Source of the DNA: an uncultured Leptolinea sp.
GTDB lineage: Bacteria; Chloroflexota; Anaerolineae; Anaerolineales; Anaerolineaceae
NCBI GenBank assembly: GCA_964600595.1
Contig: CAZRKL010000002.1
Coordinates: forward strand, 3,111 to 52,750
Reading direction: 5' to 3'
Length of the DNA: 49,640 bases
Shown: piece by piece, positions 13,150 through 47,638 of the stretch
Position numbering within the stretch: position 1 is the stretch's first letter
Layout: every line of letters begins with the position of its first letter
Notes under the pieces: generated by a model
What the model was told of the DNA's origin: nothing
Seen by the model: only the letters and a program-made list of their open reading frames with translations
Database searches by the model: none
Made by a program: the position numbers and the translations under genes

Positions 13150-13273
13150 ACTAAGGGTTTAATCCCGTTCATTTATACATTTTTTATATCTTCTTCATCA
13201 ATGCTTTACTGTCTCTTCAGTTTGGTTCTGGTAGCATACAAGCATCCAGAGTTATTAACTGAAGGAGACGGTT

Positions 13274-23894: not shown

Positions 23895-23926
23895 CGGGCG
23901 GTTGATCATGGATGATCAACCGCCCG
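23895..23926 (+). repeat. 32-nt near-perfect palindrome (15-bp arms, 2-nt centre) just after flgE
   Basis: cgggcggttgatcat-gg-atgatcaaccgcccg. The 3' arm contains the ATG (23912) of the next ORF. Confidence 0.7.
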
Positions 23927-25297
23927 GAACTGGTTATCATGTTCACCATACCTGGACCCCCACCTGTTTCTCCTGTACAACACCCTGATGAAGGGAGTTT
24001 ATTCCTTCGGGTTAATCAACGGGTTGCCGGAGAAGTTTTGAAGGTAGGCAATGAACAAGTAATCCTTTCGATCCAGGGCGTGCAAGTGGTCGCCCGGTTG
24101 ACAAATCCCGAACAACTAACAGCACTCATCGACAGGCGTTTTGCCCAGTTCCTGGTCAAAGATATGAGCAACCAGGTAGTGACACTTCAGCTACTTGAGC
24201 TTCCAACCCAGCAGAGCGCTGCTGAAGTGGCTACTACAAACCGAGAAGCTCTTCTATTAAAAGGTTTACTTAACCAAATTGGTTTACCCGCCACACCAGA
24301 AAACCAGATCCTTGCCCAGGCTGTTATCCGGCAGGGATTGCCGGTGACAGCAGAAGTTCTTCAGGACCTCAGAAGAGTCCTTGAAGGAATTCAACCCTGG
24401 GGGGAAACCGAAGCGAATTTAGCTGTACTGTTGAAATCACATCAGGTGCCGGTCAGTCCTGAAACACTTCGGTTACTGGCAAATTCACCCGCCGAAGTAA
24501 CCCAGGCATTCGCAAAACTGGTCCAGCAGCTGGGACAATTACAACAAGACGGCTCCATTTCGTCCAGCATGCGGGCGCAAATTAGCCAGGTTTTGAATGT
24601 TTTTTCGCAGGCGATCATCATAGGAGATCAGCCAGCTGAGGTGATGATTGCCCGGTTGAAAAACGCGGTGAGCCTGCTTGGGAAATCGCTCGAAGGAGAG
24701 TTGGCAAATCTTATAAACACAGATGTAACCGATCTGGAACGTGGATTGCTGGCGCTTACCAGGCTGCGGACTGAGTTGGCCGCTCGTGGATACAATGCAC
24801 TTGCCAGTGATATTGACAGTTTCAATGATCATTTACGCCTTGTCCATCTGTTCAATTCCGGCGGGAACGAGGGCAAAAAGAACGAATGGATCCGTCTGGA
24901 ACTGCCTGTGCAATTTCCGGTTCAGGGCAAAGCAGATTATGAAGAAGAATTGCACCCTGCCCGGATTCGCATCGCCCGGGATCAGTCTGCTGAAGGTATT
25001 GAAAATGTTAATCCACATTACACCCGCATAATTGTCCAAGTGGACCTTTCGCATGACAAAAGTATTGAGGTGGATTTATCGGTAGTCTCCCATCAACTCG
25101 GTCTAACCATCACAGGTACTGATTCTGACATCAGTCAGGCAGCATCGAGTGAATTGGAATCGCTGAAAGAAAACTTGAAATCACTGGGTTTTGAAACCAG
25201 ATATGCTCAAGTGGAAACGGGAACAGCGATATCCGGTGAAACGACCTCAGCGGTAACTTCCAACCTCACCAAATCTGATGTAAATCTGGAGGTTTGA
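23912..25297 (+). CDS. FliK-like protein (second hook-length-control-type paralogue); function unknown
   Basis: N-terminus VAGEVLKVGNEQVILSIQGVQVVARL. Helical repeats LLNQIGLPATPENQILAQAVIRQGLPVTAEVLQDL. The C-terminus IIVQVDLSHDKSIEVDLSVVSHQLGLTITGTDSDISQAASSELESLKENLKSLGFE resembles a Flg_hook domain. Start uncertain (23912 or 23939). Confidence 0.5.
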   Translation: MINRPELVIMFTIPGPPPVSPVQHPDEGSLFLRVNQRVAGEVLKVGNEQVILSIQGVQVVARLTNPEQLTALIDRRFAQFLVKDMSNQVVTLQLLELPTQQSAAEVATTNREALLLKGLLNQIGLPATPENQILAQAVIRQGLPVTAEVLQDLRRVLEGIQPWGETEANLAVLLKSHQVPVSPETLRLLANSPAEVTQAFAKLVQQLGQLQQDGSISSSMRAQISQVLNVFSQAIIIGDQPAEVMIARLKNAVSLLGKSLEGELANLINTDVTDLERGLLALTRLRTELAARGYNALASDIDSFNDHLRLVHLFNSGGNEGKKNEWIRLELPVQFPVQGKADYEEELHPARIRIARDQSAEGIENVNPHYTRIIVQVDLSHDKSIEVDLSVVSHQLGLTITGTDSDISQAASSELESLKENLKSLGFETRYAQVETGTAISGETTSAVTSNLTKSDVNLEV

Positions 25298-25610: not shown

Positions 25611-25946
25611 ATGGATCAAAAAGCAACCCTCAATAAAGATCGCCGAGCGTATTTTAGAATTGTTTATCCAGATGGACATCGTCCTCAGATTACAATCAGG
25701 GGAACATCTTTCGATATTATGGATATTTGTGAAATTGGGATCCGATTTCTAAACCCTGATCAGAGTAAACTTCCCGGCGATATCTTCCAGGCAGTTGTAA
25801 CTCTGCACGATAACGATCCTTTTAATATTATCGGGCGAATCATTCGAGTAGCAGACGCTGAAGCTGCAATGATGATTACTATAAGAGGTATTCCGTACAA
25901 AAAGATTATTGCTGAGCAGGCTTATCTGCGTCACCTGAATGATTAA
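25611..25946 (+). CDS. single-domain PilZ protein (putative c-di-GMP receptor)
   Basis: RRAYFR (RRxxxR) followed by DICEIGIRF (D-x-S/C-x-x-G). 111 aa. Confidence 0.7.
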
Positions 25947-26211
25947 CCACGTTATCGGTTGTATCATCAGAATTGGTTGCGAGTAATTCCCGCAATTCTT
26001 TAAAAGAATCTGGTTCAGGGCTGGTTGCAAGAAATTGCTCCAGCTTATTTTGTTCCTGAACAGCCTGGAAAATTTCTTTGCGAAGTATCGTGATTTCGCG
26101 AGGCGCTTTAATACCTATCTTAACCTTGTCCCCCTCTATGGCAAGAACCGTCACCTCTATAGAATCACCAATGTTCAGGCTTTCATCTACGCGCCTTGTT
26201 AATACAAGCAT
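25906..26211 (-). CDS. csrA: carbon storage regulator CsrA with an extended C-terminal tail
   Basis: [56 protein letters not shown], then a ~45-aa acidic tail. Directly downstream of flgL. Confidence 0.9.
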
Positions 26212-32484: not shown

Positions 32485-32829
32485 CTATCCACCAAAATCC
32501 ATAGTGCGCCCAACACCTTGCTGTCTTCGGATTTCCTGCTGGCGTTCTTCATATAAATCCTTCATCATATCAACACTGCCTCTGGCAACCATCCAATAGA
32601 TTAGCCAGATAATCAATCCGACCGCCAGCATAGAAGCTGCAGCCCGTATCGCGCACATCAGAAAAGTTGCGCCGTGTATGTATGAGATGACAGCCACAGA
32701 TATTCCAATTAGAGTGACAATAATCTGACCAAAGGTGTTGATCGTAACCCAGAGGATTGGAAGGCGGGTTCCTTTCGGCGCCTTTTGGATTTGCTTTTCT
32801 TTAGTATCTTTATCATCTTTTGCGCTCAT
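32485..32829 (-). CDS. small membrane protein of unknown function (sits where flhG normally lies)
   Basis: 114 aa with a Lys/Asp-rich N-terminus. Predicted helices ILWVTINTFGQIIVTLIGISVAVISYI, FLMCAIRAAASMLAV and GLIIWLIYWMV. ATGA overlap with flhF. No P-loop. Confidence 0.6.
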   Translation of the reverse strand: MSAKDDKDTKEKQIQKAPKGTRLPILWVTINTFGQIIVTLIGISVAVISYIHGATFLMCAIRAAASMLAVGLIIWLIYWMVARGSVDMMKDLYEERQQEIRRQQGVGRTMDFGG

Positions 32830-38212: not shown

Positions 38213-38611
38213 TTAAGATTTTTTTACACCAGCCGATAACGCTTTGTTTATCATTCTGTTTAATCTGGAGCGCAATTGATCAGCATCCAATGGTTTGGTG
38301 ATGAACTCATCGACACCAGATTTTTGAGCTTTTGTTACAATCTCTGGAAAAGCCAGGGATGAAACCACTGCAACTAGTGGTGCTCTTGCTTGCATCTGGT
38401 TTTTTATATTTGCCACGGCATCCAATCCATTTACACCGGGCAGCAATACATCCAGGAAAAGTAACATAGGCTCAGCCTCAAGTACAAGTCCAACCAGATC
38501 TTGTGGTGAATCAATCACTTGAAAATGAATTTCTTCCCGCTGCATCACCAGTTTGAGCAAATCCCGATCCATTGGATCATTGATACAGATCAAAGCGGTT
38601 GTCTGCATCAA
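38213..38611 (-). CDS. stand-alone receiver-domain (CheY-like) response regulator
   Basis: Phospho-acceptor context LLFLDVLLPGVNG; SS at the T87-equivalent position; DEFITKPL (Lys with an aromatic residue at -3). The acidic pair is ND rather than DD. Confidence 0.8.
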   Translation of the reverse strand: MMQTTALICINDPMDRDLLKLVMQREEIHFQVIDSPQDLVGLVLEAEPMLLFLDVLLPGVNGLDAVANIKNQMQARAPLVAVVSSLAFPEIVTKAQKSGVDEFITKPLDADQLRSRLNRMINKALSAGVKKS

Positions 38612-38623
38612 CTTTTACCTGCC

Positions 38624-39466
38624 TTAATTGTTGGTTGTTCCTGAGAACTGATATTCCTGTACCAATTCTCGCATCTGCTCAAGTTGGGCTTCATTAATTC
38701 CAAGGATATTCAATGCCTCAGGATGTACTTTTTTCCCGTGGGGATCAAGCAAGATATAAGTATGGGTCTTGCTAAAAGCATTGGCAATATTGATGATCGC
38801 GCCTAGGGTGGGTTTTGTTTTAGCAAAAGAAGGGGCATGGTGAAACCGGATCGCCTCAACCAGTAGAACCGGGAAATTCCATTTTTCAGCCATCAGGCTT
38901 CCTACCGCAGAGTGGTCAATTCCCAGCAGCTTCTCTTCAACCTGCCAGAGTGCCAGATCATAATTTCGCATTAGTTCTAAAATGCGCATGTAATCTACGT
39001 TCATATATTGGTCGAGGATCAACTTGCCCATATCGTGCAGCAATCCACCTACATAAGCTTCTTCCGGGTCAGGGTACCGCAAATATCTGGCAATCCATTG
39101 CGCAATGGTTGCCGTCACAACTGAATGATTCCAAAGTTCTCCGGCACCCAACCGGTAACCACTTAACCTGCGGGTTAATGGTCCGGATGAGGCTGCGCCC
39201 AGAACCAGAGTCTTTATCCGTTTAATTCCCAGGCGCATTACCGCATCTGAGATCGAGGCGCAAACAAAACTGAAACCCATTGAAGCTGAGTTTGCCATCT
39301 GTAATACAGATGCCGCCAGAGCCTGATCAAGACCAATCAAATCACTGATGGTTCCCGCCGTGTTGTTTGGATCATCCAATGCATTGAGTATCCGCGTTAC
39401 GCTTGTTGGCATGGGACGCATTTTATCAACAGAGGCTAGAATTTGATTGATCGTAGATTGTGCCAT
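38624..39466 (-). CDS. HDOD domain protein
   Basis: ILNALDDPNNTAGTISDLIGLDQALAASVLQMANSA...LWNHSVVTA...GGLLHDMGKLILD...GIDHSAVGSLMAEKWNFP are the typical HDOD motifs. Confidence 0.8.
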   Translation of the reverse strand: MAQSTINQILASVDKMRPMPTSVTRILNALDDPNNTAGTISDLIGLDQALAASVLQMANSASMGFSFVCASISDAVMRLGIKRIKTLVLGAASSGPLTRRLSGYRLGAGELWNHSVVTATIAQWIARYLRYPDPEEAYVGGLLHDMGKLILDQYMNVDYMRILELMRNYDLALWQVEEKLLGIDHSAVGSLMAEKWNFPVLLVEAIRFHHAPSFAKTKPTLGAIINIANAFSKTHTYILLDPHGKKVHPEALNILGINEAQLEQMRELVQEYQFSGTTNN

Positions 39467-45104: not shown

Positions 45105-45908
45105 ATGAAACCAACAAATATCCTGGTTATTGAAGATGATGAAATTGTCTCGAGAACAATCGAAAGATGCTTACGTGGCGATGAATTTCATGTTGGCATA
45201 GCAAACACCGGGGTGGATGGTTTACAGAAAGCACGCAGGCAGGTTCCTGATCTGATTATTTTGGACGTGATTATGCCCGGTATGGATGGTTATGCTGTCT
45301 GCCGGGAGGTGCGTGCAGATCCTTTACTCAAAGACATCCCCATTTTATTCCTGACCGCAAAGGCGAAAGACGAAGATAAAATCACCGGCTTCACCGCCGG
45401 CGCAGATGATTACCTTAGCAAACCTTTTAATCTGGATGAATTGACTTTGCGGGTGAGGGCGATTCTCCGTCGAACGAAGAGCCAGGCAAGGATGAAAGCG
45501 GATGAAGCAACCAAACCTTTCAACCTGAGCGGCATATTTTCTAAAGGAAAAACTACCACAAAAGAGACTGTCGAAGAGCCGGTGCAGAAATCATCTCGAA
45601 CAATTACCATTCGTGGTTTTACACTTGATACACAAACATACGAACTGACCACCAACCAAAACACAAAAATACGGCTTACCCCAGTTCAATTTGATCTGCT
45701 CTACCACTTGATGAGTCACCCTGAGGTGATATTCTCGCCCGGTAGATTGCTTGATGAAGTGTGGGACTATCCTACGGATGCCGGAAGCCCTGACCTTGTG
45801 AGAGTTCACATAAAAAATCTTCGCGAGCGTATTGAAACCGATCCGCATAATCCAAAATTCCTCGAGACAGTTCCCGGGTACGGGTACACCATCCGCGCTG
45901 AAGATTAA
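45105..45908 (+). CDS. OmpR/PhoB-family response regulator with a long inter-domain linker
   Basis: Receiver domain (ILVIEDDE...LIILDVIMPGMDG...LTAK...YLSKPF), a ~50-aa linker, and a winged helix (LTPVQFDLLYHLMSHPEVIFS...VHIKNLRERIE...ETVPGYGY). Confidence 0.85.
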   Translation: MKPTNILVIEDDEIVSRTIERCLRGDEFHVGIANTGVDGLQKARRQVPDLIILDVIMPGMDGYAVCREVRADPLLKDIPILFLTAKAKDEDKITGFTAGADDYLSKPFNLDELTLRVRAILRRTKSQARMKADEATKPFNLSGIFSKGKTTTKETVEEPVQKSSRTITIRGFTLDTQTYELTTNQNTKIRLTPVQFDLLYHLMSHPEVIFSPGRLLDEVWDYPTDAGSPDLVRVHIKNLRERIETDPHNPKFLETVPGYGYTIRAED

Positions 45909-46000: not shown

Positions 46001-47638
46001 ATGCCACATCATAAAGAACAAACCAATCCCCGTTTACGCGAGATTATATCAGCTTTACAAACGCTTTCTGGCTCCATGAGCCAGGAAACCGATTTAAACA
46101 AAATTCACCTTCAATACGCACGTCTGGTAAAACGTTTATTAAACTGCGAAATGGTTGCCTTGCTTTTGGTCGATAGCGATGATAAAAGGATCCTTCTTCG
46201 TAAAATTTTACTAAGTGATGGCGATTGGTCTTTTGTGGATAGTCACCAAATTGATTTGCCCGCTCTGCAGGGGTTATTTGTCAATGAAAGGATTTTGCAA
46301 TTCACATATAGAACGCAGATAATGGAGGATTTTCCATATCTGGATGTTGCCAAAGATCAGCCGTTTTTAAATAACATTTATGTATCCATTCAACCGGCTG
46401 AAAAATTGAGTGGAATTATCCAGGCAGTAAATTGCAAACCTTTCCCGCTTGATGACATAAAAACAGACCTATTGATGTTAATATGCAATTCATTTGCTAG
46501 TTCTCTGGCATCTTACTCGGCAATCAGACAGCTGAAAGTCGATAATGCAAATCTGGAAGCATGGCGGTGGGAGCTTCTTCAATCACGCAACACATTACGC
46601 GCCATGTTCGACAGCATCCCCACTTCTATTTATATTATTGATACGCGTTACAGAATCGTTGCTGTGAATGCGAGCAGATCAGAACGCGCCGGGAAAAAGC
46701 CTAATTTTCTGGTTGGACAAGTATGTTACGAGGCGCTTTATGGTCGAACCCAACCCTGCCAGGGCTGCCGGGTGAGTGATACCTTTTTATCGGGAAGAAA
46801 TACCACCCGAACCGACCGGCAATGGATCGACAACGAACAGATATCTGACTGGGAAATCACTACCTACGCGATATTAAATGAAACAGATATCCCGGTACAG
46901 GTCATTATTAATGAACAGGATGTCACTGTTGAGAAGCGGCTTGAGACCAATCTGATCCAATCGGAGAAGCTGGCAGCTGTCGGTCAATTGGCAGCCGGAG
47001 TGGCACATGAAATTAACAATCCGCTATCAGCTGTTATTGCCAATGCTCAATTACTTCGCCGCGACTTACCAGAAGACGCTTCAGATGCGCTTGAATCAGT
47101 GGAGTTAATTGAGACTGCCGGATTACGGGCATCTCAGGTCGTCCGCAACTTGCTGGGGTTTGCCCGCAAAGAGCAATATGAATTCTTGATGGTTGATTTA
47201 AATGAGACAATTCTGAATGCCCTGTCATTGGTGAAACATGAACTGGTCACGAGGAATGTTGAAGTGACAACAGACCTGGCAAACGACATACCTATGATAA
47301 AAGCCAGTCGCGACCATCTCCAAAGCGTGTGGATAAATATGATCTTGAACGCGCTTGACTCGATGGAAAAAAAGGATGGGATGATTTCAATCGTGTCTGC
47401 TAACAAGAACAAAGAGTTCCGTGTATCCATTGCAGATAATGGTAGTGGCATCCCGGCAGATAAGGTGTCACGGATTTTTGAACCATTCTTTACCACCAAA
47501 GCTCCCGGAAGAGGAACCGGTTTAGGTCTCTCAGTATGTCATCGAATAGTGAAGCAACACGGCGGGTATATCCAGGTGGATAGCCTGGTGGGAAGTGGAA
47601 CAAAGTTCACAATCATCATTCCTGAGACAACACCATAA
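46001..47638 (+). CDS. cytoplasmic GAF/PAS sensor histidine kinase
   Basis: No TM segment seen. GAF-like N-terminus. PAS region with [16 protein letters not shown]-box [15 protein letters not shown]1 and G2 boxes (NALDS...DNGSGI...GTGLGLS). Confidence 0.85.

Follow-up and report, generated by a model that had tools for sequence, protein, structure and literature searches.

Proteins with an HDOD domain are widespread and several of their structures have been solved; motility phenotypes are known for Cj0248, GsmR, SadB, PSPTO_4229, PFL_0554 and PFL_5871, but there is no agreed biochemical function for the domain. GsmR from Xanthomonas campestris and DVU0330 from Desulfovibrio vulgaris combine it with a phosphorylation receiver (REC) domain in one polypeptide. 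GsmR regulates motility gene expression, and its HDOD domain lacks the conserved His and shows neither phosphatase nor phosphodiesterase activity (PMC4114195); both Cj0248 and GsmR affect motility (PMC11004494). Here we describe two genes, encoding a stand-alone HDOD protein and a stand-alone REC protein, that lie between fliQ and fliR in a 49,640-nucleotide stretch of contig CAZRKL010000002.1 from an uncultured Leptolinea sp. of the class Anaerolineae (hereafter the window). The HDOD-REC pair at fliQ/fliR is the norm in the flagellated Anaerolineae sampled.

Comparison with GsmR, which affects flagellar expression and motility, and with DVU0330 shows that the window contains the same two domains, but split into two genes, with HDOD ahead of REC, the reverse of the fused order, and placed in a flagellar structural operon. 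The HDOD family of the window keeps all six metal ligands, unlike that of GsmR and like that of DVU0330, and fused REC-HDOD proteins also occur among its own relatives. Both domains and the fused regulators are already known, and no HDOD-receiver pair fixed in a flagellar operon is described in the literature that we searched. The genes of the locus are as follows.

44912-39761, minus strand: flbD, motA, motB, fliL, fliM, fliN, fliO and fliP (Pfam matches), the upstream genes of the unit that contains HDOD and REC
44912-44670, minus strand: flbD
39751-39482, minus strand: fliQ (Pfam PF01313, Bac_export_3, 87 bits), directly upstream of the HDOD gene
39466-38624, minus strand: gene for the stand-alone HDOD protein, 280 amino acids (aa) (Pfam PF08668)
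38608 (ATG) or 38611 (TTG) to 38213, minus strand: gene for the stand-alone REC protein, 131-132 aa (Pfam PF00072)
38212-38098: gap between REC and fliR, 115 nt
38097-37336, minus strand: fliR (Pfam PF01311, Bac_export_1, 190 bits), the first gene past a promoter-like element

The spacer between fliQ and the HDOD gene is 15 nt long (TAA GGGGATCCTCACGTC ATG), and has a GGGGA Shine-Dalgarno-like run 10 nt ahead of the HDOD ATG. The HDOD-REC spacer is 12 nt with the TTG start at 38611 and 15 nt with the ATG start at 38608; the orthologue alignment favours the latter, which is probably the REC start. Downstream of fliR follow flhB, flhA, flhF, a 114-aa open reading frame (ORF) and fliA, and the locus sits within a 40-kb flagellar cluster in which a Pfam scan of the ORFs found no P- or L-ring genes. 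A first-pass annotation, made from the sequence alone, had described HDOD and REC genes between fliQ and fliR with these spacers and a Shine-Dalgarno sequence. All of these elements are present in the sequence, and the two domain calls are borne out by Pfam scores above the thresholds.

Twelve distinct Anaerolineae genomes or contigs have the fliQ-HDOD-REC-fliR order, at HDOD identities of 44-96%. A scan of species-representative genomes returned ten Anaerolineae-type genomes (HDOD identity 44-75%), with the same junction wherever the contig extends to it. Three HDOD relatives (75, 60 and 54% identical) share the order flbD-motAB-fliLMNOPQ-HDOD-REC-gap-fliR-flhBAF, and the gene order from flbD to fliP was likewise found in loci L001-L014. 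HDOD and REC are two ORFs with stop codons between them, HDOD first, both in the window and at every orthologous locus, and the distance from the HDOD stop to the REC start is 1-15 nt in database gene calls. A further scan of metagenomes was seeded with FliR to avoid selecting on HDOD, and yielded 43 loci with a complete fliQ-to-fliR junction. Forty of these, with FliR identities of 48-72%, carried both genes between fliQ and fliR.

HDOD and REC: 35 loci of 43
HDOD and REC plus an extra gene: 5 loci of 43
REC only: 2 loci of 43 (L162 and L164; one lineage)
Neither gene: 1 locus of 43 (L152)

In L162 (3054-4705) and L164 (2353-4004) the order is fliQ-REC-fliR, and the receiver is more canonical (85 bits). 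In L152 (1562-2844) fliQ is followed by a 230-nt gap holding the promoter-like element, and then by fliR.

These data bear on whether the two genes are passengers at a permissive operon boundary with no role in motility, or an artefact of assembly. The boundary between REC and fliR does gain and lose genes, among them a methyl-accepting chemotaxis protein (MCP), a hybrid kinase, a second HDOD, REC only, or nothing. However, 40 of 43 independent loci retain the arrangement over the above range of FliR identities, the HDOD protein is strongly constrained, and HDOD genes lie near che or flagellar genes in unrelated phyla. Runs from many studies of sludge, wastewater or biofilm, at least 20 of them, contain the window sequence itself, and misassembly was rejected because many independent assemblies and runs show the same gene order. 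We consider the passenger or artefact explanation very improbable and close to refuted. The insertion is thus not confined to one assembly, which the first-pass annotation had left as a possibility, and its conservation supports the suggestion made there that the two genes form a motility-linked signalling pair. The further remark that an HDOD gene has no precedent at this position holds for the literature searched but not for genomes, in which it is the norm in flagellated Anaerolineae and has counterparts in other phyla.

We hypothesized that HDOD and REC form a split phospho-signalling output module, acting post-translationally on swimming behaviour, and assign this reading a probability of about 0.45. 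A kinase whose gene lies elsewhere would phosphorylate REC on Asp53; it could be a CheA or, in some lineages, the soluble REC-histidine kinase that adjoins REC. Phosphorylated REC would engage the HDOD protein, which would then act after translation on chemotaxis signalling or on the motor, via its metal pocket or via protein contacts, so that swimming is tuned. Presence of the pair on the same transcript as motor parts would tie its dose to motor number.

Two single-domain HDOD proteins of similar size with motility phenotypes are relevant here. PSPTO_4229 from P. syringae (273 aa) resembles the che genes in its fitness profile, and cells that overexpress it no longer swim (PMC11813219). Cj0248 from C. 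jejuni (PDB 1VQR) matches the window HDOD in fold and sequence, with about 20% identity over the Foldseek alignment. They differ from the window protein in that neither a flagellar operon nor pairing with a receiver has been reported for them. The phenotypes of such stand-alone HDOD proteins (PSPTO_4229) fit the post-translational motor or chemotaxis reading best.

The HDOD protein matched PF08668 with E=1.5e-55 (188.2 bits, cut-off 22.9), covering profile positions 3-196 of 196, and also matched the HD family PF01966 (E=2e-10). More than 1,100 relatives are present in databases, and these include at least 120 clusters that are at least 53% identical and near-equal in length, of which the named members are Chloroflexi or Anaerolineae. 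The protein is as conserved as the export-gate proteins encoded next to it (44-75% identity, compared with 44-67% for FliR and 50-74% for FlhB). Its AlphaFold2 model had a mean predicted local distance difference score (pLDDT) of 83.8 and a predicted template modelling score (pTM) of 0.81. In a Foldseek search with the model the top 12 matches were all HDOD structures (3HC1, 3M1T, 9QZK, 3MEM, 3I7A, 3P3Q, 3LJX, 1VQR).

The best solved relative in a search of the PDB with the HDOD family profile was 3HC1 from Geobacter sulfurreducens (E=2e-40; Foldseek E=6e-11, template modelling score 0.66), which is only 24% identical to the window protein. In 3HC1, five His and one Asp hold two Fe ions (PMC12075610). 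These ligands, in the WAHS, LLHDVG, SHCEVG and YHH motifs of 3HC1, align with H114, H144, D145, H185, H209 and H210 of the window protein, the predicted di-metal ligands, which are invariant in 42 HDOD orthologues. By this alignment, the HDOD protein keeps the full five-His, one-Asp di-metal ligand set of 3HC1, and is not a degenerate domain.

The complete site raises the alternative that the HDOD protein is a small-molecule enzyme or sensor, either a phosphohydrolase with a di-metal site that acts on a nucleotide messenger or a di-iron sensor of redox state, O2 or NO, with REC gating or reporting and only an indirect effect on motility. Consistent with this, 3HC1 binds two Fe, and the matches next after the HDOD structures in the fold ranking were the c-di-AMP phosphodiesterase PgpH, YqeK and an HD-GYP protein. 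A chemoreceptor with a protoglobin domain is encoded in the HDOD-containing operon of one Caldilineaceae locus described below. DVU0330, which has an intact site, shows weak Mn-dependent activity on bis-p-nitrophenyl phosphate (bis-pNPP), but it is inactive on c-di-GMP and on the other substrates tried (PMC4114195). No substrate is known for any HDOD protein, and the non-HDOD fold matches were weak (E above 0.04). We also rejected the more specific candidate of an HD-GYP-type c-di-GMP phosphodiesterase: the GYP motif and the HHExxDGxGYP signature are absent from the HDOD protein, in which FHHAPSFAK follows the HH pair, and the fold match to the HD-GYP structure Bd1817 was weak (E=0.08). Taken together, an enzyme or sensor role with only an indirect effect on motility is distinctly unlikely.

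To place the family more widely, we examined 70 loci with HDOD relatives from other phyla. Outside Anaerolineae the HDOD identity is at most 36%, and none of the 70 loci has the gene between fliQ and fliR. A REC gene lies within 2.5 kb in 26 of them and a histidine kinase gene in 16, whereas 12 of the 70 relatives are fused as REC-HDOD or HDOD-histidine kinase. Eight lie in che operons, a context in which no HDOD protein is described in the literature searched. A Caldilineaceae locus has the order MCP-MCP(protoglobin)-HDOD-REC-CheA-CheC-CheD (L017:1286-9682), and another locus has CheA-HDOD (L016:2843-5807). The order CheD-HDOD, in most cases followed by CheB, was found in five loci of different phyla (L022:1905-3253, L023:3612-7868, L033:105-1987, L035:1266-3750, L044:3707-7706). 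Flagellar clusters of KSB1 and Latescibacteria (L027:1765-8474, L020:1458-6130) have the order flhA-flhF-flhG-fliA-(ORF of about 100 aa)-HDOD-histidine kinase. A TPR/DUF6115 protein is encoded after the HDOD and kinase genes of L027, and the window has a weak DUF6115-like match after fliA (31717-31325).

Within the class, the genes that follow the pair vary. A dCache-HAMP MCP gene lies between REC and the fliR promoter-like element in three loci (L091:1473-3848, L092:1082-3457, L140:1406-3793), and a gene for a soluble REC-HisKA-HATPase hybrid kinase directly follows REC in four (L109:2709-3839, L129:1566-2690, L135:2758-3882, L142:170-1300). L109 also contains a second HDOD gene (403-1338) between fliQ and the first.

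A further alternative is control of flagellar gene expression or assembly rather than of motor behaviour. Phosphorylated REC and HDOD would then serve a regulator or an export component as adaptor or anti-adaptor. Precedents are GsmR, which works at the level of gene expression, and SadB, an adaptor for proteolysis that contains an HDOD domain and influences flagellar synthesis (PMC4114195, PMC12075610, PMC6543031), handing AmrZ to Lon. SadB from P. aeruginosa (YbaK-like and HDOD domains, PDB 9QZK) is an HDOD fold match of the window protein (Foldseek E=5e-9), and governs the motile-to-sessile decision through its protein-protein adaptor activity (PMC12075610). Further in favour of such a role, the HDOD and kinase genes come after fliA in KSB1 and Latescibacteria, and the window genes adjoin export-gate genes, upstream of a putative regulated promoter. 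On the other hand, SadB has an extra N-terminal domain, an occluded pocket with only one His ligand, no need of a ligand and no link to a receiver; its metal site and that of GsmR are degenerate, while the six ligands are kept here. The closest relatives outside the class lie in che operons and not near transcription factors, and Pfam found no DNA-binding or protease-related domain in either HDOD or REC. Control of expression or assembly is, in our assessment, unlikely.

REC matched PF00072 with E=8.5e-15 (55.3 bits, cut-off 30.2). Its phospho-acceptor is D53, and S83, F102 and K105 are equivalent to T87, Y106 and K109 of CheY; these four residues and P106 do not vary among the 62 distinct orthologues. 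In place of the acidic pair the window protein has N10-D11. The alignment confirms the residue calls of the first-pass annotation (phospho-acceptor Asp, Ser/Thr, Lys, aromatic residue and an ND pair).

Several observations weigh against the reading of HDOD and REC as a split phospho-signalling module. Position 10 of REC (equivalent to D12 of CheY) is Pro in 39 of 62 orthologues and acidic in only 6, and position 11 (equivalent to D13) is Asp in 32 and Asn in 28. Because this metal-binding pocket is atypical, phosphotransfer may be slow or lost in half of the family, although Glu, present at position 9 in 45 of 62, might substitute for the missing acidic residue. REC is also the fastest evolving protein of the operon apart from FliO (30-42% identity), and it does not reach a CheY equivalog model of NCBIfam (CheY_Halo, 41 bits, cut-off 200). 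The activity of DVU0330 noted above is weak and does not extend to c-di-GMP, and known HDOD proteins act at different levels, GsmR on gene expression and SadB as a proteolysis adaptor (PMC12075610). Flagella do not require the pair, because one lineage has no HDOD gene and one has neither gene. All sampled HDOD relatives outside the class keep the six ligands, but this is a biased view, because the sample was drawn with a pattern containing the HD motif and is silent on degenerate HDOD proteins. Lastly, metatranscriptome contigs (Logan) cross the fliP-fliQ-HDOD, HDOD-REC and REC-gap-fliR junctions, in agreement with the co-transcription raised by the first-pass annotation; this RNA evidence is weak, however, because the contigs are shallow (even 2-6x depth) and unstranded, carry no 5'-end information and may derive from DNA carry-over. 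They cannot separate read-through from a new start at the REC-fliR gap.

In Bacillus subtilis, cheY is co-transcribed with switch and export-gate genes in the fla/che operon, in which it lies between fliY and fliZ/fliO; cheA, cheW, cheC and cheD come later in that operon, and there is no HDOD gene. The first-pass annotation had called REC CheY-like. The label holds for its architecture but not for its sequence, since no equivalog model is reached, the receivers of PleD, PhoB and Spo0A match at least as well, and the pocket is degenerate. B. subtilis cheY encodes a true CheY, whereas the window REC is not a CheY by sequence models and its gene is placed after fliQ at the end of an operon. PRK10610 was outside the top 25 models for the window REC, and the L001 orthologue scored 23.8 bits with it against a cut-off of 189. 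In a search of the PDB with the REC family profile, PleD (86 bits), Spo0A (77), PhoB (76) and also AdeR ranked ahead of Thermotoga CheY (70-71). A ten-sequence panel scored with the REC family hidden Markov model (HMM) had given B. subtilis CheY 76.6 bits, the REC of the L017 che operon 68.8 and the receiver of the OmpR-type regulator in the window 60.9, but this preference for B. subtilis CheY was lost across the whole PDB. The identification of REC as CheY was not supported by the NCBIfam models or the PDB ranking, and that of REC as a recent copy of the receiver of the neighbouring OmpR-type regulator was rejected because the two are only 19% identical.

These results also bear on a specific form of the suggestion made in the first-pass annotation, in which phosphorylated REC would be a CheY-type binder of FliM and the HDOD protein its dedicated modulator, for example a metal-dependent phosphatase or a sink for phosphorylated REC. 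The sequence that would be bound is the following.

42459-42427, minus strand: N terminus of FliM, MLTQAEIDALL (translation)

This is the CheY-P docking motif, and the translation agrees with the earlier statement that FliM carries it. The retention of the motif is consistent with a FliM-binding role, as are the stand-alone nature of REC and its aromatic residue, which all 62 orthologues have at the Y106 position, the MCP gene after REC in three loci, the HDOD-REC-CheA-CheC-CheD order in Caldilineaceae, and the small HMM panel, in which B. subtilis CheY and the L017 REC were placed above the OmpR-type receiver. The distance of REC from the best CheY equivalog and its PDB ranking, with PleD, PhoB, Spo0A and AdeR above the CheY proteins, argue against it. 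We also know of no HD-family enzyme that dephosphorylates aspartyl phosphate. No che genes were found among the window ORFs scanned against Pfam, as had been claimed earlier. The flagellated Anaerolineae member Ornatilinea apprima encodes chemotaxis genes (PMC4653792), and a canonical CheY encoded elsewhere in the genome would therefore be the more economical partner of FliM. A FliM-binding role for REC is thus rather doubtful, and we judge it improbable.

The two genes had been described as lying inside the export-gate operon, and this part of the earlier description appears to need correction. Alignment of the REC-fliR spacers of ten genomes revealed a promoter-like element, with the invariant sequence TTTACGC-n4-TTTAG-n6-TTCAY-n7-TTTACwGAcA, 17 nt, TAtcCT and all other positions free. 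Its four T-rich blocks are phased at 11 nt, and TAtcCT lies about 30 nt before the fliR start. A search of the window with this pattern (up to 3 mismatches) gave 4 matches where 0.01 were expected, each upstream of a co-directional gene block.

38196-38131, minus strand: copy before fliR (alignment of 10 orthologous gaps)
45009-44944, minus strand: copy upstream of flbD/motA, with the -10-like TATCCT at 44949-44944
13172-13237, plus strand: copy upstream of the flgB-fliE-fliF operon (pattern match)
8721-8656, minus strand: copy upstream of a glycosyltransferase/TPR block (pattern match; Pfam for the block)

The fliR copy contains the phased repeats TTTACGC / TTTAG / TTCAT / TTTAC at 38196-38159, then a -35-like CTGACA (38159-38154), a 17-nt spacer and a -10-like TAACCT (38136-38131). 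All 10 aligned gaps and all four copies in the window share the 17-nt spacing from the CTGACA-like box to TAnnnT. In 74 of 75 metagenome loci, including the insertion-free locus and those bearing an MCP or kinase gene, the element is located 90-100 nt ahead of fliR. It also precedes flbD in L001, L002 and L003, and is absent from the 70 non-Anaerolineae loci. A simple promoter consensus scan did not call it in the REC-fliR gap, and by eye no sigma-28 or sigma-54 consensus was seen there, although no formal scan for these was made. There is no terminator-like site after REC in the 115-nt gap. The gap had no Rfam match even at E<=1, RNAalifold gave zero consensus pairs, and the fold z-score was -0.95. 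As there is neither an Rfam match nor a consensus RNA fold, the element is taken to act as DNA. It resembles a promoter with activator sites that is common to the flagellar operons, and no phased-repeat flagellar promoter element is described in the literature searched.

Because the element precedes fliR whatever lies upstream, HDOD and REC would be the last genes of the flbD-motAB-fliLMNOPQ unit, and we read fliQ/fliR as an operon boundary in this clade, across which read-through is possible. The genes fliR-flhB-flhA-flhF form the next unit, behind their own element of the class that also precedes flbD and the flgB operon. We have little doubt about this description of the locus, with the order flbD to fliQ-HDOD-REC and then the fliR unit behind its own element. 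The shared promoter architecture offers an entry to the flagellar regulatory hierarchy of the monoderm Chloroflexota, which are abundant in activated sludge and of which 233 flagellated genomes have been catalogued (PMC12488501).

Besides REC, the only two-component genes that Pfam identified in the window lie divergent from the flbD/motA copy of the element.

45105-45908, plus strand: OmpR/PhoB-type response regulator (Pfam)
46001-47638, plus strand: PAS histidine kinase (Pfam)

A regulator is also present at this position in L001 and L003, and a hybrid kinase in L002. The OmpR-type regulator may be the flagellar master regulator, and a candidate binder of the phased repeats, because 11-nt-phased direct repeats suit such regulators. 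The regulator and the PAS kinase are together a candidate phosphodonor. Behind the fourth copy of the element lie genes for glycosyltransferase-TPR, TPR and VIT-VWA proteins (8714-3799, minus strand), a block that may serve flagellin glycosylation or form an accessory unit. The GTG annotated as start (8714) overlaps the element, and translation therefore probably begins further downstream.

The locus thus contains an HDOD protein with an intact metal site, fixed in the flagellar operon of most of the flagellated Anaerolineae sampled and in every case accompanied by a receiver. In other phyla the closest relatives of this HDOD protein lie in che operons, and a kinase or chemoreceptor gene sometimes follows the pair. 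This arrangement yields concrete candidate partners for an HDOD protein, namely the receiver, CheA or a hybrid kinase, and motor proteins. More speculatively, HDOD proteins with an intact di-metal site could constitute an unrecognised class of chemotaxis and flagellar accessory proteins that work with stand-alone receivers, as metal-dependent enzymes acting on phosphorylated REC or as di-iron sensors of redox state or O2. Anaerolineae would have hard-wired the pair into the flagellar operon, and other phyla would have kept it in che operons (CheD-HDOD-CheB; HDOD-CheY-CheA) or by fliA. We regard this broader proposal as doubtful.

Some further features of the flagellar cluster were recorded. 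The usual gene between flhF and fliA is flhG, which encodes a MinD-like ATPase. No flhG was seen in the window, in which the 114-aa ORF at this position (32485-32829, minus strand) has no Pfam family and a weak EfeU-like NCBIfam match; L001-L003 likewise have an ORF of about this size after flhF. csrA follows flgL (25906-26211, minus strand), and fliW was not recognised next to it. Two ORFs without a Pfam family are found near csrA, one of 111 aa at 25611-25946 (plus strand) and one of 461 aa that follows flgE at 23912-25297 (plus strand).

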